Shown here: positions 3,314 to 59,600 of the stretch, in pieces | Position numbering within the stretch: the first letter of the stretch is position 1 | Layout of the letters: the number at the start of each line of letters is the position of its first letter | Origin: Sphaerodactylus townsendi | Taxonomy: Eukaryota | Reading direction: 5' to 3' | NCBI RefSeq assembly: GCF_021028975.2 | Contig: NC_059428.1 | Coordinates: forward strand, 111,538,001-111,602,000 | DNA: 64,000 nucleotides | Program-made: the position numbers and the translations under genes | The notes under the pieces: model-generated | Databases searched by the model: none | Told to the model about the DNA's origin: nothing | What the model saw: the letters and a program-made list of their open reading frames with translations, nothing else

Positions 3314-21995
<18,682 letters not shown>

Positions 21996-23779: not shown

Positions 23780-23920
23780 GATGACTTCCGCACATGCAAA
23801 ATAATGCGTTTTCAAACCACTTTCACAACTGTTTGCAAGTGGATTTTGCCATTCCGCACAGTTTCAAAGAGCACTGAAAGCAGTTTGAAAGTGCATTATT
23901 CTGCATGTGCGGAATGAGCC
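23780..23920. mobile_element. Short palindromic MITE
   Basis: TTCCGCACATGCAAAATAATGC...GCATTATTCTGCATGTGCGGAA inverted ends. Confidence 0.65.
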
Positions 23921-24169
23921 AATGAGTGTTTTTTCAACGCTCTCAGCTGCCTCACATGCTTGCTCAGTCAACACCTGTCAGAAAGGCTGAAAACTGACAA
24001 GCCCCTGGTCCCTGCAGGGCCCCCAGGCTTCAGCCTAGTCAGTTTTATGGATAATCCTCATGCAGAGGGACTGCAGCCCAATTGTTTAGACAAGAGTGGC
24101 TCTGCCTAGAGGCCACACCGGGCCATTTCCTCTCTGGAATGAAGGCCTGAGAAAGATGACACTGAATCA

Positions 24170-24600
24170 TTTTTGCGACGGGAACCGCACGTGGCGCGCG
24201 AGCACCATGAAGGCCGCAGCCCTAGACGCGCTCCCCGGCCTCGCGCCGGAGGAGGAGGAGGAGGAGGCGGGCGGAGAGGGGGAGGGAGGCGATGGGCAGC
24301 CGCGGCCTCGGAAGTGAAGCGCCGCAGGGGGACGAGCCGTCCTCTCTCGGACGATGTCCGGCGGCCTCTTCGGAGCTGAGGCGGCCTCGGGCTTCTGCAA
24401 GCGGGTGCTGGTGACCGGCGGCGCCGGGTTCATGTAAGCGAGGGCGGGCGAGGCGAGGCGCTTGGGCGATGTCCGGAGGAGGAGGAAATGTCCTGCTTTC
24501 TGGTGGGCTGTCCTTTGCCTCCGTGCTGCGGAGGGCTCCGTCAGAGGGCCGGGGCGTCTCCTCCTTGTTCTCTCCGGCAACTCGTCTAATGTCCTTGCTG
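24170..24600 (+). promoter_or_regulatory. CpG-island promoter of TGDS
   Basis: CpG-rich; E-box CACGTG ~24188; ETS/GABP site CGGAAGTG at 24309; GC boxes. Confidence 0.75.
24354..24433 (+). CDS. TGDS: TGDS exon 1 ([26 protein letters not shown])
   Basis: ATG at 24354; AT|GTAAG donor. Confidence 0.92.
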
Positions 24601-25730
24601 GAAATCGAGGCAAAAGGAGGGGGGGGGGGGAGAGAGAGAGAGAAGTGTGTGTGGAGGAGGGTTGCCAACCTCCAGGTGGGACGTGCCAGTGTCTCGGAAT
24701 GTTACAGGGTGACAGATCAGTTCCCCTGGAGGAAGTGACTGCTTTGGAGGGTGGGTTTTTGTTTTTATTTCTGTTGCCCTGCTGAGGTCCTGCCCTCCAC
24801 GTCGAGAATTTCCAGGAATTTCGCAACCTAGAGTTGGCAACCCGTGTGTGTGTGTGTGGGTGTGTGGGGGGGGGGGGGAAGAGAATCATGTTCTTTGATT
24901 TTAAAAAAATGCTTGCACGGAATATTTCCCTTCAGTCCACACCTTTCTCTGGTTCTTGGCTATTCAGGAGACTGGTGGTGGATTCCTGCTTTAAAGGACC
25001 CATTTGGTTTTGGTTTTTAAAAACATTTTTCATAAGTTTTGAAATGCAGTTCAACAAGGAGAAAGGGTCTGACATGAATGTGGGGTATTCTTTTCATCAG
25101 GAGTCGTTCCAAAACATGATCCTACTGAAGGGAAGGAAAAAGGGTGTCCACCCCCATATTCCATAAGAAAAATTTACCCTCCCTTGCCTCAGTCTGACTC
25201 AGTAAGGATGGCACCAATGATTTCCACATCTGTGGCAGCTGAGACAGATGAAGGAGTAATAACACCAACATATGTCTTTAATTTTTGCATTTGCATTAAA
25301 AGCCCATCAAAACCCAAGTTTGACAAAAACATGCCTTTTGCTTGCTCAGCTAGTTTTTTACTTGCAGGGCAACCTTTGTAGAGAAGGGAGTTCCAGAACA
25401 CAATTCTCCACTTGTTGCGATGCAGGCCATCCAGCCATCTCTGTTGCTGCCCCTGCATGCATGAACCAGGGAGCCGACATTCAGTTTTCTACTGTCTCAG
25501 TCGCACAGAAGTCACTTTGACCTCTTGTGGGGATGCTGTGCTAGTTTGTCAGCTGAGGTCTTTCACCAGTGCTTTTATGCAGGAAGTGCGGAAAGAAAAA
25601 AACAGACAGCAAATTCAAGTGGCCATGAAGTTCCCTTATGGGAAGCCTGATGACCCCAAAGGGCAATTGTCCTGTCCAGATTAAAACTGAAAAAATAAGA
25701 GCAGCTGGAGAGCTCTATGTGTGTGTGTGC

Positions 25731-31700: not shown

Positions 31701-34700
31701 ATATTTGGTTTTATTTCCAATTTTAGTTGGTTTTACTTACATGTAGGCCACCTTGAACCATGAGAAAAGGCAGGGTATAAATATTTTAGTAATATTAATA
31801 TTTTTGATTAAAAATAGAGCTTCAACTTGGAATACAGTTTCTCAGTGGGGCTAATGGTGATAAGCCTGCATCTTACAGATTTTTCTGAGCTGCTACATTA
31901 CAGTGAAGAGTTCAGGCTTTGCTTTCCTAGCATCCATGGCTTCATGGGGCACAGTAGCATGGTCTTCAGGGGAGTAAATGGTGGCTTCACTTTCCTGCTG
32001 CTCTGTGTTGGAAGCAGGCAATTCTTGCCAGAGAAACACGGGTGACTATTGCTGGGCCTGATGGGGAAATTACACTTTTTCAGTTGCCCAGACCAGATAA
32101 GTGTGCCTAAAAACTGTAGGGAGAGAACCAGCTGCTGTACAGATTCACATCAGAGAGTAAGGATTATCTATTTTGTATACTGTTTGAGAAAACCAGGATT
32201 GCTATTGTCAAGAGGCACGGACAAACTGGACAATAAGGGCATGGCGTCTGGATTACTAATTGTACACCTTGTTCAAAGATTATTCCAGCTTTCAATTTGA
32301 GCTTTCATTAGGGTTTTAAATAACCGGCTTTTAGAAATCTTGTTACTTCAATTTTATTTTGTATTTGAACCTGGAAATGTATAATGTGGACTTTATATTC
32401 TATACCTGATAACTTCTGGTCTATGACCGTAATAAACAAAATTGATGATGATACATTATGGAATTGAAATCCGAAGGTTAGAATAGATCCTTCTGTCCGA
32501 TGTATTTGAATGTTTACTCTCTAGCTGTGTTAAGAGCATTGATTACTCCGCAGGAAAGTATTGTGTAAGCTTTTTATGGCTATTTGTGTTGGGTATTTTG
32601 AAATTTTGACATTTTCACTGTCTGTTTTAAAGTTCCCAGTGGTTATAACACGAAGCAGCAATGTCTATGGACCCCACCAGTTTCCAGAAAAGGTCAGTTT
32701 GATTAAAGAACTTCCTGATAGCTTTGATAAGACTTCATACAATTGTGTACTTCATTTATATCCCACCTTTCACCACAGTGGGGACCCAAAGCAGCTTTCC
32801 TTCTCGTATCCTCCATTTTATCCACACAACAACCTTATGAGGAAGGTCAGACTGAGAATATGTGACTGGCTCAAGGTCACCTAGCAAACTTCCGTGGCGC
32901 AAATGGGGATTTGAACCTGGCTGTTCCAGATCTTAGTCTGACATATCTACATACCAAACCACTGCACCACACTTGTTATCTAATCCTGTTGGTGTAACAA
33001 TTTGTCCAGTCCACATCTTTGCATGAGTATTCTTGCTAAATTTTATCAGTGATTTCACTATACCTGGATTCTCCATGTTCTTTTCAAGTTTGCAGAGACA
33101 CTTTGTCAAAAGTCCATCTTTACTGTTTGCGTGCCTAACTTCCTCAGTTGGGGAGTGGTGGGGGGGAGGAATTCTTCCTTGATTTCCAATTGCTCTAGAG
33201 TGGATTTGGGCAGAACTGGAAGGCCGGTCTCATTCATTCCTTAAATCTGTTGTCAGGGAGACACATGGCAGTATCCGATCCCTGTTTCTCTTTGCTTGGC
33301 CAACAGACGATCAGAAGGTTTTAAACTTTTTAAATAGCACTGTCTGTGTTCAGCCATACATAGCTCACCAGAATAAGCTGGATCCGAGCTGCCGTGCATT
33401 TTTTTGCATTACCGTTTTCCATGAGAAAATTGTGGCTGTGTTTTCCTCAACTAGTCTGAATGAACAAATATGTTTTTATTCCTTTTCAGGTTATTCCAAA
33501 GTTTATTTCTCTTCTGCAACAGAACAGAAAATGGTACGTATAGTCATCATGTTTGTTTAAGAAAAAAATTATCTGGCAACACGACTCAGTCAATTGTGGC
33601 ATATTTGAAATGCAATCTTACGCCTCAAAATCTATTTGCTCAAATGACAACAGCTGAAATCCTGACAACTTCTACATACTAAAAGGTCATGTAACTGAAT
33701 ATTCTGATAACTGCAAAAGTTATACTCCCCCACAAGGCTTTTTAACTTGCTTTGTTTGCCAACAGAAGCCCATTAATAGGAGTGACATTGAGTAGAGAGG
33801 GAGTTGGCACAGGCACAGTGACCCCATCTGCACATGATTTCCAGCTGGTGACCAGTGAGTCTATGTGCTTGGGCGATGTGTATGTGTCCCTGTACTCAGG
33901 AATGTTTGAAAAAGCAGAGTTTCCAATCACAAGAACCAAGATGGGCATCTAGACTCTGTGCTTACAAGCCAATGATCATGCATGGGTATTACAGCAAGGC
34001 CAGGTTGCTTTTACATGTTCTTCCTCTGCACATGTTGGGTAATGCCTGGATTTGTTGGCCCTCACAAATACTAAGAATGAAGGTTGCATTTGTTAGCTAT
34101 TTCCTCTGGTGGTGGAAAGTGCCATCAAGTCACAGCCGACATTATGGTAGCCCCAGAGGGTTTTCAAGGCAAGAGACATTCAGAGGTGGTTTGCCATTGG
34201 CTGTCTCTATCTTGGCTTTCTTTGGTGGTCTCCCATCCAAGTACTAACCAGAGCTGACCCTGCTTAGCTTCTGATGAGGTTGTGCTATCCTGTGCCATTG
34301 ATGTTAAGATACTTCATTCTCTTTCCCTCTAGGTAATCTTAATTCTCCTTTTGCTTGTCACCAAATCTCTCCTCTGGTGACAAAGTTAAAAACATCTAAT
34401 TTGGACCAAGATAGTATTCCGCTCTTACGTAGCAATTTTAGGGTTCCCAGTGCTGGTTGCCTTTAGCCATCCTCTCAAGCTTAAATAATTTCATAATAGC
34501 TACGTGTGTGGTTTTCTTGTGTATTCCTACCTCCTCTTGCTCATGGAGTACAATTAAAAGCTTCCAAGTTTAGGAAATGTTCAGTCACACTCCAGTTTAC
34601 GTTGTCATTTAAATTGCAGACACAGCGACAATGAAATACTTTTTGGGAGGTGGGGGAGAGAAAACTTCCCTCAGTACCTGCATCTGGGACTGGACAGATT

Positions 34701-46449: not shown

Positions 46450-46695
46450 TGTCTTGCCGAAGGCTTACACGGCCGGATTCAACTGGTTGTGGTGGGTTTT
46501 CCGGGCTGTGTGGCCGTGGTCTGGTGGATCTTGTTCCTAACGTTTCGCCTGCATCTGTGGCTGACATCTTCAGAGGTGTATCACAGAGGGAAGTCTGTTA
46601 CACACAAGATGCCAGCCACAGATGCAGGCGAAACGTTAGGAACAAGATCCACCAGACCATGGCCACACAGCCCGGAAAACCCACCACAACCAGTT
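46450..46695. mobile_element. Palindromic non-autonomous Penelope-like element
   Basis: 90-bp inverted arms 46481-46570 and 46606-46695 (2 mismatches); direct repeat TTAAATTAAACT at 46438-46449 and 46694-46705; contains a hammerhead core. Confidence 0.8.
46536..46576 (-). ncRNA. Minimal type I hammerhead ribozyme (Penelope-type)
   Basis: CCU-CUGAAGA-UGUCAGCCACAGAUGCAGGC-GAAACGUU-AGG: conserved core, stem I CCU/AGG, palindromic ACGU stem III. Confidence 0.7.
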
Positions 46696-48363
46696 AAATT
46701 AAACTGTCAAAGGATATAGTACCCTAAAGAATTTCATTTATTTTTTGTGTAGGGGGTGTACCTTCCCTAACATCTTAATGACGGCAAAGCCAAAAAAGGG
46801 GGTTTAGGTCATTTGTTCATAAATGTTGTCAATTATTCACAGTCTATATAGATGGGAATTGTTGGCATCAAAGATTGCTGTGATCTCCCAGAGTATCTGT
46901 ACCAGCTTTCTGGACTTGTTTTAATTTTTAAATAAACATTAATTTAATGTTTGTTAAATTAATTTAATGTTTATTTAATAAACATTAATAAAGAATGTTG
47001 CTCAGTAGAGTGGCAGGATAAAAATAAAGTGTGCCATCAAGCGACAGTCGACTGATGACAACCCCCTGAAGTTCCACCTTATGGGGTTTTCAAGGCAAGA
47101 GAAGAGCAGTGGTGATGAGCCATCGCCTCCCTCAGAATGGCAGCCCAGTTCTTCTTGGTGGTTTTCCATCCAACTATTGACCCGGCTTAGCTTCCAAGGT
47201 CTTACGAGATCAGACTCGTCCTGTTTCTATGATATTCCAGTGGAAAGATAACTTGTATTAAAACTGGTGCTGTTAGCACCGGTTGAAACAATAACTTAGT
47301 CATGAAACATATTGAGAAAGTCGTTATCATCTCACAGCCTAAATTATCTCAAGATTATTGCGGAGATAAACAAAAGATAAGGTTGTATCATAATTTGCTT
47401 TGAAGCCTTGGGGGTAAAGTGGGTGGGTGGGTAGAAATAACAACTCAGTCATTACATGTTTGATATCGTTCTTAAAGTCTGGCGTAGGTACGTGGGAGTG
47501 GACTTTTCACTCAACTACTTTGAGTCAGGATTGCTCCAGGCACACTTCTGGCGGATGAACTAAAATGGTAATGTTCTTAAATTATTTTAGGAAATGAATG
47601 TTTAACATGGACAGATTTTCAGGAGCAGACAATACAAGAAAACAAACCCAAACAGGCTGTGTGAGTGTGAACTGGCATATAATCTTCTAATGGGGTGGGA
47701 GAGGGATAAGTGAGGACATACTGTTCCATACCTGGAGCTGGCAACCCTAAGGCCTAAGAAGCTGTCTGCCCAGATAGGATTTTTTAAAAAGTACATTGGC
47801 CTGTTAGTTAAAGTTGCTGTAGATGGTGAGACTCCCTCGCTCAATAAGTACACCACAACGACAGGCTGGAAAGGAATGGGCCGCAGCCCGTTTATTAAAC
47901 AACAAACATATAAACAAGAACTATTTACATCAGAGCTGGGCGGCAAACGGGTCGCACATCACATCCCAATGAATGGGAAACTGGCGGGAAGGGAAGCCCA
48001 GAGATCATACTCCTAAATGCTTCCACACTTCCCGCCCCTGCTGAGGAGACGGGCACCGGCTGAGCCCCAAGGCCGCCCCCAGCCCGTCTTCCTCCCGTGC
48101 TTGCTGGGGTGTCGGGCACCGGCTAAGCCCATGGCCGCCTAACGGCCCAACCCAACCCCACTCCCTGGGGTGTCGGGCAGCGGCCCGGCCTGCCGGCCTG
48201 CCAGCCTGCCCGCCCCACCCCCCCGGCCCTCATAGGGCGCAAGCCTGGGAGCCCCAGCCGGAAGGCTCGTTCTCTCCCCAGATGTGCGACACCGTTGCAA
48301 ACCCGCCACGAGCTGCCCACCCTTGCAGCTCACCGCCCAAGCTCCTCAAGCCTGAGCCTGTCT

Positions 48364-48946
48364 CTATCTTAACCACCGACAAAGGGTAAACTGAACTGAC
48401 TGAAGCCACAAGTCCATGCCCCATTGGGACAGGCGGACGCCATCCGGCTGAAAAAGGTCCATGACGTCCCGGGTGATTTCGGAGTGTTCCGCCACCGCTC
48501 CCCCGAGGGAAAGCACCACCTTGGCGGCCGCCTTATTGACTTTTCTGCAGGCCCTGTCCACTGCAGAGGGATCCAACGCTCCGCTCCAATGGGCCCACTG
48601 CACCATCTCGGACCAAACCAAGGTCATGTTAGGCCGGTGCCTGGCAAAGCTCCTGAGCGTGGCGGCCACTGCAAAACGCAGGTCAAGGCCCGACCTGGCA
48701 GGGAGATCTTCCTCCCCAAGGTGGATGACCAGGAGGTCCGGTGTAGCCAGCTGAAAAATGTATTCAATGACCTTGGGCTCTAGCTCATGCCAAAGCATGT
48801 GCCCCTGCCCCATCCAGGAAATTCTTACGTGCGCGAGTCCGAGATGCCGGCCCCATTCGAATTGCAGTAGTCCCCGACTCTGTTGACAAGGCTGTGCCCC
48901 ACGACCCACACCTGCCGATAGACAGTCTGCGGCGTCCCTGGAGGCA
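48364..48946 (-). pseudogene. SGNH/GDSL hydrolase-like ORF of the element (one frameshift ~48860; no ATG)
   Basis: VWVVGHSLV (block I, shifted frame), PDLLVIHLGEED (block III), DGVRLS (block V). Confidence 0.8.
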
Positions 48947-48959
48947 CTGAGGAGGGAAA

Positions 48960-49870
48960 TCAACAAGTCAGGTGTGGGCGAATGTACGCCCGAAAGGCCC
49001 CCGACCGCCACCTGCCCAAATTGCGGATATCCTCCGGGGCCCTGCCTTCTGCTGCCGCGGCCGTGGCGGCCCCAATTCTGAACGAGTGCAGGCCGAATTC
49101 CGCAGCCGGTAGCCCGGCTTGAGCCAAGCATGCCCTGAACACCGCCAGCATTTGGAACCTGGTGAGGGGGGACCCATCCTCGTGCACCAAGAGCATGCCA
49201 CCCACCAGAGGCCTGTGCCGTAGCCACTCAATAAGGGGGGGGAGGGGCAGGTGGCGTCGCCCGGTAGGGCCGGCATGGTGACCCAAGCCCCACGGCCCTC
49301 TTGGTCGGTCTTCGAATGGGCCAGCCAAGCGTAGACCATGTCTCCCGACAGGACGAGGTGGTCCCTTTGCAGCACGGTGCTGGAAGGTCGATCCCTGGTA
49401 GGGGCAACCAGTTCCCCAGGCCTGAAAGCCCCGTGGTGTGCCAGGTGGAAGGCGGCGGCGAAAAGCAAGCGCTCATAGCGCGAAGCGCACACCTGCCTTA
49501 GCACCCCAGTGACCGCCCTCAACACTTCCTTGGTGACTGGGCGCCTGAGGTCCCTCTGTCTGGTGCCCACCCGCCGCCACCCAGCCACTAGGCGGCGGAC
49601 TACAAACGCCTTGGTGATGTCAGGAAAACCGGAAACCTTGCAGTAGAAAGCGATGCCCGCCAGGTGCACCCCCATGGTGCGCGGGTGCATCCCCTGCCCA
49701 TGGAGCCGGACCAAATACTCGAGGAGGAGGCCAGTGTCCACCCCACCGCAGACCCGGCGCCCGGAGGACGCAGCTGAAGCTCAGGAAATCGCGCACGGCT
49801 CCGGCTGTATTGCCTGCAGTGGCCGGTGCCAACGAAGTTCAAAACACCTGTGATGACGTCTCGTTGCCAA
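48960..49870 (-). pseudogene. Ngaro-like tyrosine recombinase, frameshifted
   Basis: Catalytic motifs GAFRPGE, SKTDQ, HSFRIGAAT, GRWRS, AYIR, split over at least three frames (breaks near ~49810, ~49740, ~49240). Confidence 0.9.
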
Positions 49871-49889
49871 GGCTCCAGAGGGACGCCCG

Positions 49890-51508
49890 GCACTGTCGCG
49901 GAACGGCTCCGCCCCGGGGGCCAGGCGCCGGAAACGATCCACCTGCTGGCGAGATAAGGCGTCAGCAATCTCATTCTGCAAACCTGGAACAAAAGCAGCT
50001 TTGAAAGAGATGTTATGAGTGAGGCAGGTGAGAACCAAATTGCGAACCAGGCGCATGACCCGTGCCGATTTGCTCGACTGTCTGTTTACCACGCGTACCA
50101 CTGCCTGGTTGTCGCACCAGAAAAGCACCCGTTTGTTAAGCCAGAGGTTGTGCCAAATGTGCACCGCCACCAGGATGGGAAACAGCTCCAGAAAGGTGAG
50201 ATCCCTGGTGATGCCCTGCGCGTGCCACTCTGGGGGCCAAAGGCCCTGCGCCCACTGACCCCGGAAGAACACACCGAAACCAAAAGCCCCAGAGGCATCA
50301 GAGTGCACCTGCAACTCCAGGCCAGGTTCCAAAGCTGATTGCCACAAAGAGATGCTGTTGAAGTTTCGGATGAAGGACAACCAGACCTGTAGGTCTTCTT
50401 TCATGGGAGACCCTGATGTGATGGTCAGGGGACTTGCAGCCCGACAAGGACCTCGCCAGCCGGGAGCAGAAAGCCCTACCCGGGGCCACCACCCTGCAAG
50501 CGAAATTGAGGTGGCCGAGTAAGGACTGGACCAGGCGCACCTGCATTTTCGGAGGAGGAGAACGGACTGGAGCAGGGCTGAAAGGGCTGTAAGCTTGTCA
50601 GCCGGGAGTGACGACGTGCCTAGGACCGTGTCCAGGTGAATGCCCAGGTAGCTGAGGGCAGTGGCGGGCCCCTCCACCTTGTTGGGAGCCAAGGGGACCC
50701 CCAGCTCGGCGGCCAGGACCTGGAAAGCCTGAAGGGCCAGCTCACACTCCCGGGTGCCCTGCCTGCCGATAAACAAGAAATCATCAAGGTAATGGATCAC
50801 CAAACCGGAGGGCACCCGCTGCCTGAAAGCCCATTCAAGGAAAGTGCTGAAAGTCTCAAAGGCGGCACAGGCAAAGGAGCAGCCCATGGGCATGGCCTTG
50901 TCCACATACCAATTGCCTTGGAAGTGGATGCCCAGCAGCTCGAAGTCCACGGGGGAAATGGGCAGGAGCCGGAAGGCGGACTGAATGTCACACTTTGCTA
51001 GGGATGCCCCCGGACCCGCCTGCCTGATGCAGGGGATGGCTTCGTCCAGGGTGGCGTAACGGACCGAACAAACCTCTGGGTCAATGAAATGATTCACGGA
51101 ATCGCCCCGGGGGTGGGAGAGGTGTTGAATTAAGCGAAACTCCCCCGGGGCTTTCTTAGGCACGACGCCAATTGGGGAGACCCTGAGGTTGGGGAGAGGA
51201 GGGTGACTGAAAGGGCCAGCAATGCGGCCGGCCTGGATTTCCTTGTTGAGCTTATCAGCCACCACTCCAGGGAGATCGCGGACAGATTTTAGATTGCTGG
51301 CTTGGTAAGCCCTCCTTGGGCCTTGGTATGGGATGCGGAAGCCAGAAGAGAAACCATCCCCCAGCAGGCGCGCAGCCCCCCTGTCTGGATAACGCTGCAG
51401 CCACTCCAAAAGCACCCCCACTTGAACGGGTGTAGGAGCCAGAGACTGCAGCTGAGCGAGCATCTCAGTGTTTTGCGGGGGCGGGGGCACTGCCCTGGCC
51501 ACCGGCAT
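49890..51508 (-). pseudogene. Ngaro-like reverse transcriptase / RNase H, with two compensating frameshifts (~50547 and ~50405)
   Basis: SPIGVVPKK, FRLIQHLS, KCDIQSAFR, MPMG, HYLDDFLF, HSDASG, LELFP, WCDNQAVV, NEIADALSR. The segment VQSLLGHLNFACRVV lies in another frame. Confidence 0.9.
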
Positions 51509-52916
51509 CTTTGTGGGAGGGCCCGGCGCCGGGCGACCGGGCCTGCCGAAAGGGAGGGCGTCCCGCCGGCTTGGGACAGCTGATCCTGCTGTGGCTGCCG
51601 GAACAAAAGGAGCAAGAGTGCTCAAATCTACATTTTGGCCGCTGGCAAGCACCTTTGTTGAATTCCCAACACAACCCCTTAGCCCCCACCCGCCCCGGGT
51701 AGGCTCTGCCGGGTTTTGTAAGAACAGGAGGATCCGCCGCCCCTCCCATGGCGGGCTGGACCACGACCATCCAGGTTTGGTCGTGGATGAGGTCCCAACG
51801 GAAAAGGCACTTGTGCGAGGCGTTCTTGCGGATGGCCTCGTCGTAAGCGATGGCCGCAGTTTCCCCAGCCAGCGCCCAAGCCCGCAGCACATGAGCCATG
51901 TGAGCTGCCAGGTGCCAGGCCCGCAGGGGATACGCTGCCCCGATGAGGGCCAGGAATTCGGTGAAGCCCTGCAGCCAGTTGTTAAAATTCCGCTCGGCTG
52001 CTGCTGGGTCCTTCCGTTTTTTGTCAGCCTTCCCGCCCGACAAACCCAACTCCCCCTCCCGCCGCGGGAACTTAAAGATGTCCACGTAATACCCATCCAG
52101 CGCCCGCTCCCGGAGCTTCCTGGGGAGGTGGGACCCGGGCGGGTTGCCGCGGTCGTCTTGAGCCGGGCCAGGGGATGGCGCTTCGCCGCCCCGAAACGCC
52201 TCGCGCTTTGCAAGCCACGGTGGGAGAGCAGGCACTCTCTCCCCCCCGCACCCAAAATTCCCCAGTGGCCTGCGCGGCATCATCCTCAGTAGACTCGCCC
52301 GCCAACGAAGAGCTGGGGGATCGCCGGGGCACACGGGAACGCCCTGACAACCGCTCCCTCCTCCTGCCCTCGCGCCCGAGGGCCGACGGACGCATCCACC
52401 GATGTGGACGCTACGCTTAACCGGTGGCGAAAGGTGCAGCTCCTCCGTTGCTCCGCTCGCGGCCCCCGCCGGCGCCGCACCGGCCGCCGCCGGCGCGGTA
52501 GGCTCAGGGCCCCCGACCCCCGAGGTGGGGCCCGACTCGCCAGCCGCTCCGCCGAGGACTTGTGAAAGATGCAACAGGGTGTCCGCCAGGTTGCGGACCA
52601 AGGCAGGATCGGTGCCAATATGGCCAACATGTTCGGGCCGGGAAGATGCCGGGCCGGCACCCCCCGGGACCGCGGGGAGGGCCCCTCCTAAGGGGGACTG
52701 TCCCGCCATGCCGACCGGCTGTCCCCTGCCGATGGGAGACAAGCCCGAGCCCGCGGCCGCCCTCGCCGCCGCTCCGATTCGCCCAACAACCGGGCCGTCG
52801 TCCGACGTCCCCGGGCCAGTCTGGGCCCGGACCCTGTTCAGCAGAGCACACGCTCTGCCCGATGGCACCGCCGCCTCAGCAGCAGGCTCCCTGCTCTTGG
52901 CCCTTTTCGGCCCCAT
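51465..52916 (-). CDS. Ngaro-like ORF1 (gag-like) with C-terminal CCCH/CCHC zinc fingers
   Basis: GCCGCCATGG start context; CWEFNKGACQRPKCRFEHSCSFCSGSHSRISC; FNNWLQGF...YDEAIRK motif typical of DIRS/Ngaro gag. Confidence 0.85.
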   Translation of the reverse strand: MGPKRAKSREPAAEAAVPSGRACALLNRVRAQTGPGTSDDGPVVGRIGAAARAAAGSGLSPIGRGQPVGMAGQSPLGGALPAVPGGAGPASSRPEHVGHIGTDPALVRNLADTLLHLSQVLGGAAGESGPTSGVGGPEPTAPAAAGAAPAGAASGATEELHLSPPVKRSVHIGGCVRRPSGARAGGGSGCQGVPVCPGDPPALRWRASLLRMMPRRPLGNFGCGGERVPALPPWLAKREAFRGGEAPSPGPAQDDRGNPPGSHLPRKLRERALDGYYVDIFKFPRREGELGLSGGKADKKRKDPAAAERNFNNWLQGFTEFLALIGAAYPLRAWHLAAHMAHVLRAWALAGETAAIAYDEAIRKNASHKCLFRWDLIHDQTWMVVVQPAMGGAADPPVLTKPGRAYPGRVGAKGLCWEFNKGACQRPKCRFEHSCSFCSGSHSRISCPKPAGRPPFRQARSPGAGPSHKDAGGQGSAPAPAKH

Positions 52917-53689
52917 GGCGGCTGCGAGACCGGCCCAGAAGAGGTGAAAGGAAAGAAAAGGTTGAAACGAGAGAAGCGAGGAGGGCCAGAGGAAGAAGGA
53001 AATTCAGCTAAGAAAGGAAAGGAAAGAAAAGGCCAGTCTCCTTCCAGGCCTTACGCGAGACTCCAAAAACACGACCACGCCTTGCTGGTTCTCGCCGCCG
53101 GGAAGGGCGCGGACCGGGGAAGGCGTCTAGATATACCCAGGCTCCTCCCGCCTTTTTCGGTGGGAGCCAATCATTGCACCCGGTTCTGCAGCTAGCCGCC
53201 AGGCCATGCATGCCCCTTATCTTGCTGCGTTGCTCACCACGGCAGCAATGGCTGCCCCTGGTTATTCAGGTGCATCTTATTTTGCAGAAGCTAAACTAGG
53301 TTTCTCCAGCCTTGGTGAGCTTTTGGGTACTTGTTGGAATTTGGAAAAGGGCAATGGATATTGCCCAAAATGGATGCCATAGAGGGCTGGTTTATATTCG
53401 ATTCAACATAAAGATAATAGATTGTATATTCCTCCACCACAGAACAAAGCATGCCGGACCTTCTTTGCTGAAGAATGCCCCGCCTGGGTCCTAGTGCCTT
53501 CCTCGCCCTTTTGCCATCAATGCTGTTGTATCAAAGTACCATGTTCAATAATGCACAAAATAATGGTTTTGACAAAGGGAGCCCATAAAAATGAATAATT
53601 CTCATGTTTGTTCAGGACTATATTCTAATGCAGAAGCATGCAACTTTCTCAATCGCTGCACCTCAACTGACCACTTGTGTGTTCCAGCA

Positions 53690-56661: not shown

Positions 56662-59600
56662 GTGAGGAGAACGGGGGGAGGGGGGGGAGGGGGAGGGGGA
56701 GGGAGGAGAAGCTCTTGAAACCTTTTGCTATTTTAGCCTTGGGAAAGATTGAGAATGTTCTGGAAGATTCTGGAATATTTGGAAACAAGCCAAATTCTAG
56801 GTGAGACTCCATCCTCTTTGCATACCTAGGCAAACTTAGACGTTTCCTTAAGTAAAACTAGGCTGTATGTAACTTTTTTCTCTCTCCTTTGAGCAACTAG
56901 AATGCCTCTGATTCATGACTTTCTAAGTTTTTCCATTCATGTTCTGAAAATGCTGAAGGGAAGTTGCAAGCAAGTGGCTGCAGGTGCACATCTCTTCTGT
57001 GAATATTCAGACCTAAATGGAATGCATTAGTGGCAGAAAAGCTTTCCAGAGCTGTGCCAGATGCCCCTTTCAGCCCATTCCCTCACACATATGTCATTTG
57101 TGAGTGCTTTGTTTGTTAAATTTCTTACTTGCCTGTTAAGAGAAAAAAGTTAAAGGCAATGCATGGTCATGAGTTTCCTTACTTCCTTAAGTGGGACAGC
57201 ATTACAGGATTTCGTTTTTCGAGGATGAGAAAGTATTGGAGACTTATGGAGCTCTTGCTGTGTTTTTTTTTGTATTCAGAAAAAGATAGATAGTATTGGA
57301 AGCAAACAGCAGAACACCAGTGAGATTTCACATAGTTTCATTGCTGACCGATTCACAATTTCAGAATACTCTTTCTGTCTCAAATACAAACTACAAGCTG
57401 GTTGCAACTGTTCTACTGCCAGCATTGCAACCCTCCACTGGAAGGATATTGCCTTATCTGGGTTTAAATTGGTGGTTTATCAGAGACCCAGAGTGGTTAA
57501 AGTGTCAGGATAGGACTAAGGAATCCGGCTCAGGTCCTTACTCCCTGGGTGACCTTGGGCCAGTCACATTGTTTCAGCCAATCCAGCGTCATAGGGTTGT
57601 TGTGAGAGTAAAATTACAGAGGGCAGGACCATGTATTCTGCCCTGAAGAACAGGAGGGAAATGTCATGGTAAGATATTTCCAATGGTTGGAGTGAGTTTC
57701 TCCATTATCAGGAGACCATATCATTAACTCCCATGAGTAGAATGATGTTCAGTAATTCTAAATCCAAGCCATTAGCCACCAAGTTAATTATCAAATGGTC
57801 CGCCAGCATCTGAAACCCTGCTATGAAAACAACCACCAGCAGACAAAATAAGAAACTAGCTTTAACATGGGAGAGAAAATGTTCAGGGTTGTTACCTTTT
57901 CCTTTTACACCATACAGGTGTGGTTTTATGGCTGCAATCTTATCTGCTGTTGAAGAGGGCCAGACTTACTTCCAAATAAACATGCTCATGTTTCCATGTA
58001 GGGGATGTGGTTTTTCCTGCCGTTTCCTACTTTGTCTTGTCACATGCCCTTTCCATCCCTTGTTAGTTGCCGCATCTGGAGTCCTGTTTGTGAACTGTGC
58101 ACCAGGGAGAAAGGAACAGGTGGAGGAGTCTATGTCTGCTTTGTCTCATGCTGCATTGTAGGCATATGCATTGCGAGGTGCCTCCCCTCCTCAAAGTGCA
58201 AATATTAATGCATGTTTTACAGCAATTCACACTTATAGTTTCTAAGGCTGTAATCCACTGCACACTACTTGGAAATAGAATCCCGCTGAAAATTGTACTT
58301 TTAAAATAATCAAGCACATGGATGGCCCAGGCTAGCTTGATCTCACTAGATCTCAGAAGCCAAGCAGGGTCAGCCCTGATTAGTACTTGAATGAGAGACC
58401 ACCAAGGAAGTCCAGCCAGGACTGCTATGTAGACAGCCCTTTCCAAACAGGTGGGGAAAAGCTTTAGGGAGTGGTGTGGCCTTGCGCCTTGTGCATTTGC
58501 CTTGCCTGGGGAACTTACTGTGGTGGAGGGGAAGATGCATTGGTAGATGTCCGTCATACAGCCTCACTGTTGAAGAACCCAAAAGTCTGGGCTGTTGTGG
58601 GGCTGTGCTGGCAACCCACAGGTGCCAGTGCTGGTGTGGGGGGTGGGCTGGGGCATTCCCAGGGGCAGAGCCAACTTTAGCCAGCTCCCTCCCATGATTG
58701 AAGGTCAGGAGTGTGGTGCTTAAGTGGCTTTGGTGGTTTAAGTCCTGTTCACCCCATGGGGTTTCCCAGTGGCTGGGAGGCTTTTATCTGTTGTAAGTCT
58801 TCCCATGTCACCAGGAAGCCTCCACAAGAGTGGCTGGCCAACTGGCTGGCCTATTGGATGGGGCTGCCCATCAGTAATGGTAATGACAAACCATCTCTGA
58901 ATGTCTCTTGCCTTGAAACGCCTGTAGAGTTGCCATAGGTGGGTTGTGACTTGAAAGCCATTTCCACCACCACCACCCAGTAACAGGCTCTACATATCGA
59001 TAAATATATCCACATCATTCTTTAGAATAATTTCACAGGTAATGTGCAATTTGTGATGCATCATTGAGAATTCATCTTTGCATTCCTACCCTCCTGCACT
59101 AAAATGCTCTCTGATAGTTACTTTTTTGGGGTCTTTTTATTAACAGTCTGGTTCTGCTTTGTTAATAACATTCATCTGTGTGTGGAAGAAGCCTTCACTA
59201 TTATACTAAAGACAACCATCCCTTGCAAGAACTATTAACCAGAGAAAACAAGAATAGATCAGACTCTGGTATTTGATTACTTCTGATTTCTCTACAATCA
59301 GAACACAAAGCATCTTTTAAAAGATCTCATCTCATGGAAGGACAGCTGATGACATGGCCTTTGTGTTTAATCTGAAAGATCGCTTGAGTCCCAAATAAGA
59401 TGCTTTTAGGGCAGTCGCTGTGACTGAGTGGGGGCATGTAGGTAAGAGAAAGGAAATGCCAGTAAAGGACTTAGTGCAGTTACCAGAATAGAAGCTGGAG
59501 ATCCAGAATATATCTTCAATTTCCTGAATCGTTCCCCCAATTAGGCCTCAGATAGGAGATGGGGGAGGCTTAATTGCCCAGAAGAGATGACTAGTTCTGC

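Follow-up and report, generated by a model that had tools for sequence, protein, structure and literature searches.

The Ngaro superfamily shares a common A1-gag-RT/RH-YR-SGNH-B1-A2-B2 layout, set out for Xenopus DIRS-53_XT in the portions available of PMC9210276 and also given in those of PMC8547959. In the same account of DIRS-53_XT, a short AA is shared at the insertion junction, the B repeat is 152 nt long, and the portions available describe neither an RNA structure nor a boundary motif. Solo units are represented by SIRE of the Trypanosoma element VIPER (PMC6681497) and by the solo AB repeats of Cafeteria Ngaros (PMC8547959), and a structure is not described in the available parts of either source. 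For DIRS-1, the primer is stated as unknown and the intermediates as mostly single-stranded linear cDNA, according to the available part of PMC7192593. Among the matches listed by full-text literature searches there is no description of a Ngaro RNA structure and no tested priming mechanism for Ngaro; the founding Ngaro papers lie outside the reach of these searches and may mention such a structure.

The window analyzed here is a 64,000-nt stretch of the Sphaerodactylus townsendi genome, and its minus strand carries, at 53282-47814, an element that is assigned by its sequence features to the Ngaro-type tyrosine-recombinase retrotransposons (order DIRS). The family of this copy is young and present in high copy number: a first look at the genome gave 1296 candidates, and the 40 that were scored all show 97-100% identity. 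The reverse transcriptase (RT) has 379 homologs with a top identity of 64%; squamate records rank first, and the best named relatives are squamate and amphibian records. Ngaro elements have a tyrosine recombinase (YR) where other retroelements have a DDE integrase; that of the window copy, with a visible H-x-x-R motif, is 85% identical to an unbroken ORF of the sister family. An SGNH hydrolase ORF follows the YR in some Ngaro members. The SGNH-like ORF has no Pfam match in its frameshifted window copy, and a protein search with part of it returned no homologs; same-position ORFs of metagenome loci match Lipase_GDSL_2 in 4/4 tested. The superfamily is marked by the lack of a methyltransferase domain, and none was matched among six ORFs at E<=0.1 with profiles that are not DIRS-specific. 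Coordinates are collected in Table 1.

Table 1. Features of the Ngaro-type element and of the predicted fold of its B repeat (window coordinates)
Feature	Position	Strand	Remarks
A repeat (A1), 208 nt	53075..53282	-	TATA-like box 53135-53126; repeated as A2 in full copies
gag-like ORF	51465..52916	-	weak CCCH zinc finger, Pfam zf-CCCH_4 E=0.082; matches sister-family ORFs
Reverse transcriptase / RNase H	49901..51745	-	Pfam RVT_1 E=8.8e-10, RVT_3 E=0.0097
Tyrosine recombinase, broken across three frames in the window copy	48963..49920	-	Pfam Phage_integrase E=0.0063, below curated cut-off; tblastn pieces
SGNH-hydrolase-like ORF, frameshifted in the window copy	48364..48911	-	GHS block visible in the sequence
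B repeat, ~495 nt	47814..48308	-	only one B in the window copy
Helix P0, 5' strand, predicted, B1 context	48398..48407	-	pairs with the post-AATAAA hairpin
P1, 5' strand, B1-specific, ends in first GGCG / G-run	48334..48344	-	
P2 hairpin, B1-specific	48309..48332	-	length and sequence vary among families
Junction motif UGGCGG, start of B1/B2 identity	48303..48308	-	deepest-conserved part
P3, 5' strand	48281..48298	-	
Two inner hairpins, 48279-48247 and 48238-48226	48226..48279	-	counterparts in other families
Three ~60-nt repeat hairpins, 48221-48167, 48160-48105 and 48094-48043	48043..48221	-	lineage-specific triplication
Hairpins 48036-47983 and 47978-47964	47964..48036	-	
P3, 3' strand 47960-47943, and P1, 3' strand 47942-47933	47933..47960	-	
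AATAAA 47896-47891 and tetraloop hairpin 47889-47878	47878..47896	-	linker-x end antisense to hairpin, B2 context

The window's family possesses the split direct repeats A1-ORFs-B1-A2-B2, and the window copy itself retains a single B without A2-x-B2. Among the top 30 B matches, 7 run on into A, a 57-nt linker x and a second B, while 22 stop at B and one reaches a contig end; 30 matches to linker x comprise 17 full elements, 11 solo A-x-B units, one internally deleted copy and one tandem. The layout and the short AA at the insertion junction follow the superfamily pattern, and the B repeat is much longer than in DIRS-53_XT (~495 nt). The solo units with their short unique linker resemble SIRE and the Cafeteria solo repeats, with the difference that here the linker end is antisense to a 3' hairpin. 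A double-stranded circle with two equal junctions would lead one to expect the order A-x-B-A-ORFs as well. This order was not found, since none of 15 5' ends (L031-L045) is preceded by B and none of 30 linker loci (L046-L075) runs on into A and ORFs. Given the A1-ORFs-B1-A2-x-B2 layout, the structured domain corresponds to the B repeat plus 36 nt of B1-specific flank. An earlier note on this DNA had rightly singled out the domain and had placed it in the 3' UTR, missing its identity as the B split direct repeat, which occurs twice in full elements and also in solo A-x-B units.

The predicted RNA fold of 47933-48344 has a minimum free energy (MFE) of -240.2 kcal/mol against -207.5 +/- 6.6 for 100 dinucleotide shuffles (z -4.98, 0/100 as good), and two coding windows of the same length from the same element gave z -0.2 and +0.7. 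The comparison with shuffles thus bears out the earlier note, and all the arms it had named, among them those of an outer helix, a GAGCUGC/GCAGCUC hairpin and a long-range helix (P1, P2 and P3), lie on the minus strand where it had put them. Pair probabilities are 0.99-1.0 for inner P1 and for P2, and 0.95-1.0 for the upper 10 bp of P3. Base 47943 is assigned to P1 and P3 alike, and a local helix of 3 bp competes with the two pairs at the foot of P3. P3 also encloses three more hairpins (48279-48247, 48238-48226 and 47978-47964). The fourth hairpin proposed by the note, at 48036-47983, forms at 0.98-1.0. Its three separate repeat hairpins survive in part: repeat 3 forms (0.98), whereas repeats 1 and 2 cross-pair in the global ensemble, leaving their separate stems at ~0.02 and 0.00, and forcing all three to fold separately costs 3.6 kcal/mol. 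Covariation among the arms of the three repeats, as claimed by the note, is visible in two pairs changed on both sides but does not rise above shuffles (205/500) in a test with n=3 and poorly registered apex columns. The structured unit reaches beyond the 47933-48344 limits, in that 48407-48398 is predicted to pair with the hairpin that follows AATAAA (47889-47878). The domain is 68% GC and contains internal repeats.

Related families were collected by searching the genome with an Anolis RT; 40 of 71 matches were taken and fell into 16 nucleotide clusters, and shortened or interrupted loci were left out of later tables. RT identity among the representatives is 62-94%, the window's family standing at 62-68% to all of them except its sister L114, and the RT tree covered the families of this genome. 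Set against 20 shuffles each, 10 of 11 representatives have a domain that folds better (z<=-2.7), and comparable values occur in 1 of 22 coding control windows (z -4.6). The exception, L087, folds no better than its shuffles (z -0.4) and is counted against a signal function. P2 is found in the MFE folds of 15 of the 16 representatives and P1 in 13, and P3 has a mean pair probability of at least 0.84 in 15 of 16. In the predicted folds, a common P1/P2/P3 junction enclosing 6-8 hairpin loops is therefore a recurrent feature of most representatives.

Several lines of evidence bear on the helices themselves. P3 strands bind their own partner at -27.2 kcal/mol (n=14) and partners within the clade at -24.2, compared with -11.8 across the three main clades (n=102, best -19.3), and in 13 of 14 cases none of the element's 644 coding windows does as well as the own pair. 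P1 is weaker as a covariation test; in 7 of 14 cases, the window's family not among them, its own pair outdoes every coding window. P2 gives a covariation score of 0.31 against 0.136 +/- 0.026, with 0/500 shuffles as high and slid controls at or below 0.137, a comparison in which kinship among the sequences raises the counts. Alignment by plain MAFFT put P2 and P3 of the window's family, as well as the P3 3' strand, out of register, and alifold double-change counts for P3 were for this reason left unused. In alignments judged by eye, other families have just one hairpin like the three repeats, which makes the triplication a local one. The conserved core, as the alignments indicate, is the G-run, the P2 hairpin and UGGCGG, and the emphasis that the earlier note had placed on three tandem hairpins was misdirected, the deep conservation lying in the basal junction.

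Copies of the window's family also carry a record of selection. Variants were classified in 102 copies after CpG transitions and variants present in 2-3 copies had been dropped, with those in at least 4 copies taken as inherited. Inherited variants are 27 unpaired, 4 pair-keeping and 5 pair-breaking, against 53, 31 and 93 among singletons (Fisher p=1.5e-5). The MFE fold gives a similar result (26/4/6 against 46/35/96, p=3.6e-5), and for this reason the test cannot choose between the two folds. Inherited variants avoid paired positions, and the fold looks selected.

The junction motif marks the boundary between the parts of B1 and B2 that differ and those that are identical. UGGCG after P2 is invariant in 15/15 aligned B1 sequences, and unbroken B1/B2 identity begins at position 0 to +2 of UGGCGG in 12/12 elements with both repeats. 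A prediction of this boundary, set beforehand, held in 5/5 further families, to which two of the 12 elements belong. In the L089 family, most B2-type copies differ at +2, and the identity limit falls at +3. At the motif, B1 always reads UGG, and B2 varies (UUG, CUG, GGG, CGG, UGU); in most elements, the fold predicted for the B2 context has the motif in P1 where the first GGCG would stand. The end of linker x forms a predicted duplex of -15 to -18 kcal/mol with the 3' hairpin in 10 of 13 representatives. The three without this duplex are L077, where the hairpin too is missing, L078 and L096. The pairing switches together with the loop (UAUG/CAUA versus UGCG/CGCA), once in the tree. The corresponding prediction, of an x end antisense to the post-AAUAAA hairpin, was borne out in only 3 of 5 new families and is counted against the signal.

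Three other readings of the junction region were considered and rejected. A two-tier G-quadruplex from two GG-N-GG runs is contradicted by loss of the second GG in an L109 subfamily, L146 and L184. For a tRNA primer-binding site, only UGG(C) is fixed and the next bases vary. Self-priming from the polyadenylated 3' end on linker x would, by reasoning, leave the unique end of x uninherited, and this end also departs from an exact complement of the hairpin by G-U wobbles.

The core extends to distant relatives. A metagenome scan gave 80 loci with 44-53% RT identity in 59 clusters; in 27 of these clusters the coding end could be recognized and was followed by 120 nt or more. Of these 27 distinct Ngaro-like loci, 12 have a G-run, a hairpin and UGGCG after the last ORF, where 0.35 are expected, and 0/27 on the reverse strand, with a pattern that was derived from the families of this genome and with thresholds set after some of those loci had been viewed. 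The 15 loci without the motif as defined are counted against it. Many metagenome versions are minimal, possessing an internal loop and lacking a large P3 domain, and P3 and P1 differ widely among the versions. A covariance model of P2 and its flanks (R1, 14 sequences, window excluded) found no match in the window and the 80 metagenome loci under default filters; with filters off, its top match within the window is the window's motif at E=0.2. Rfam 15, self-cleaving ribozymes included, has no match over the window domain at E<=1, in agreement with the earlier note, whose author had not recognized the structure as one already described. In L047, L138, L081 and L098, Rfam gave only weak matches far below gathering scores, among them gut-2 (E=0.81) inside both B copies of L098. 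No relative was found in viral contigs. We conclude that a known class of element carries an apparently undescribed conserved RNA signal.

The B fold is probably, on our reading, a cis-acting replication signal that fixes where DNA synthesis starts or switches between B1 and B2. The earlier note had offered packaging, RT recognition or priming, and circularization as roles for a cis-acting RNA. A selected structure is supported, and among these functions the evidence favors reverse transcription, because the conserved junction motif coincides with the B1/B2 identity boundary. A motif that is B1-specific, deeply conserved and positioned on the boundary has the appearance expected of a priming or stop-and-transfer site. 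Within the replication-signal reading, we judge second-strand priming to be the likeliest form, though a tentative one, ahead of a stop followed by strand transfer, which is doubtful, and first-strand priming, which is improbable.

The steps of such a signal can be sketched. The read-through RNA would be a'-ORFs-B1-A2-x-b'. Such an RNA has neither the promoter portion of A nor the final part of B, and the layout obliges it to restore the missing ends of both repeats by copying the internal ones. A primer, equivalent to a polypurine tract, or a stop at UG/GCGG may arise in B1 through the G-run, P2 and UGG, and copying from B1 would then renew B2 starting at that base. For its part, B2 would engage its own, second UGGCGG in the P1 pairing. 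There the end of linker x would pair with the hairpin at the RNA 3' end and hold this end beside the UGGCGG site, and the inner hairpins, triplicated here, may be docking sites for Gag or RT. In the 5' third of B, B1 and B2 are barely more alike within an element (0.031) than between elements (0.034), so re-copying right up to the boundary is not demonstrated by these values, and a fixed boundary could also come from selection on two different contexts.

Two known replication signals invite comparison. The polypurine tract of LTR retroelements is a purine-only tract adjoining the repeat start that primes second-strand DNA after RNase H cleavage. Similarly, a G-rich sequence lies just upstream of the repeat start here, and an A-run and a G-run are present in metagenome loci L131, L142 and L162. 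Unlike the polypurine tract, the G-run is separated from the repeat start by a hairpin of ~15-40 nt, and the tract of the window is not purine-only, so that a purine-only tract at the repeat start was not found. In hepadnaviruses, epsilon functions in protein priming through a terminal-protein domain, together with phi pairing. Epsilon is likewise a structured, context-dependent signal present twice in a terminal redundancy, with long-range pairing that brings the 3' end near; the Ngaro structure is much larger and belongs to a different RT lineage.

A bolder form of the replication-signal reading, which we consider quite unlikely, is that G-run, hairpin and UGGCGG constitute a new class of RNA element, extending from this vertebrate to distant metagenome Ngaros, that makes the primer or RNA end itself, through cleavage within UGGCGG or through templated priming while the linker clamps the 3' end alongside. 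If true, tyrosine-recombinase retrotransposons would have their first priming mechanism, one that needs neither tRNA nor target DNA. Apart from this bolder form, the finding itself pins a particular six-base site, within a defined predicted fold, to the repeat boundary of all full elements examined and places it in distant relatives as well; it further yields a candidate for a new RNA family and a means of recognizing where Ngaro elements end.

Among the alternatives, the one that survives best, though unlikely, is a poly(A) read-through switch in which B1-specific P1 hides AAUAAA and transcription runs on to B2, where the signal is exposed. Full-length RNA must indeed read through B1, as follows from the A1-ORFs-B1-A2-B2 layout, and in L081, L083, L084, L086 and L115 the first three bases of AAUAAA are predicted to be paired in B1 (P unpaired <=0.11) and largely free in B2 (0.73-0.94), similar to the HIV-1 poly(A) hairpin, which occludes AAUAAA in one repeat copy. 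However, this occlusion is confined to 5 of 10 elements, all of one clade, and is not seen in L114, L077, L087 and L098. In the window's own family AAUAAA lies in a local hairpin in both contexts and no switch is predicted, which separates it from the HIV-1 case, and a switch of this kind leaves the metagenome motif without a long P1 unexplained.

Less probable still is a packaging signal alone, in which Gag binds the hairpins through its CCCH zinc finger and the boundary does no more than delimit what both copies need. The inner hairpins keep their number and order across families, with one triplicated here, several metagenome loci have hairpin repeats in tandem in their 3' regions, and solo A-x-B units, 11 of the 30 linker matches, retain the domain, all as a packaging signal would have it. 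However, packaging alone would give no reason to expect the deepest-conserved part (G-run, P2 and UGG) to be B1-specific and to adjoin the boundary.

A self-cleaving ribozyme or nuclease substrate, with a cut within UGGCGG that gives an RNA end where RT runs off, is very unlikely. It would fit a short invariant unpaired motif at a helical junction and a boundary sharp to ~3 nt, but the invariant bases are few, the Rfam search gave no ribozyme match at E<=1, and P3 and P1 vary widely among the metagenome versions. The probability is remoter again that the fold acts on single-stranded minus cDNA, as a snap-back primer or recombinase substrate, rather than on RNA. Antisense folds score as well or better in 6/6 families, with equally low z-scores, so folding scores do not tell the strands apart and the structure could act on single-stranded cDNA; the DIRS-1 intermediates cited above and the folding of the B|A junction as DNA point the same way. 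On the other side, sense folds are richer in G-U pairs (9-20 versus 1-8), and the G-U pairs between x and the 3' hairpin would be A-C mismatches on the other strand. A GC-rich tandem duplication without selected structure, suggested by the base composition, the internal repeats and the one coding window at z -4.6, is scarcely credible, being largely refuted by clade-specific P3 pairing and the variant bias and further opposed by the shuffle z-scores, P2 covariation and metagenome motif counts.

Further features accompany these elements. Tandem arrays of repeated, hairpin-like units are present in the 3' regions of metagenome Ngaro-like loci (L127:4289-4515, L146:5194-5418, L169:6486-6894 and L180:6687-7197). 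At the 3' ends of L146, L166, L169, L184 and L185, A(A/T)TAAA precedes a small hairpin that ends in GTGGC and often resembles the P2 hairpin of the same locus. At L004:984-1038, contigs from two sequencing runs jump back by 51-55 nt, which points to copies that have one more repeat hairpin. A C-rich, CCCACCC-like motif is found at the A2/x border in L004, L077, L081, L084, L087, L098, L114 and L115, followed in most of these eight linkers by a U-rich tract. Integron-type recombinases act on folded single-strand substrates, which the B|A junction of these Ngaros resembles. This junction (window 47825-47814 joined to 53282-53240 in full copies) has a predicted DNA stem in 6/6 loci folded as DNA (L004, L077, L081, L087, L098 and L115; top-strand z -2.5 to -5.5), with GCAA/TTGC arms around an inner hairpin of varying sequence and the crossover AA at an internal loop.

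Elsewhere in the window, an inverted repeat at 46477-46699 has 94-nt arms that are 97% complementary, is related to 17501-17704 and has weak miRNA-like Rfam matches below threshold. A dispersed repeat at 58319-58428, 20209-20313 and 34213-34274, with a weak 5S rRNA match (28 bits, E=0.033), is probably a 5S-derived SINE. Short MITE-like elements with terminal inverted repeats are located at 13086-13400, 9655-9889 and 23786-23914, and a GC-rich island (0.60) outside the Ngaro element spans 24001-25000.
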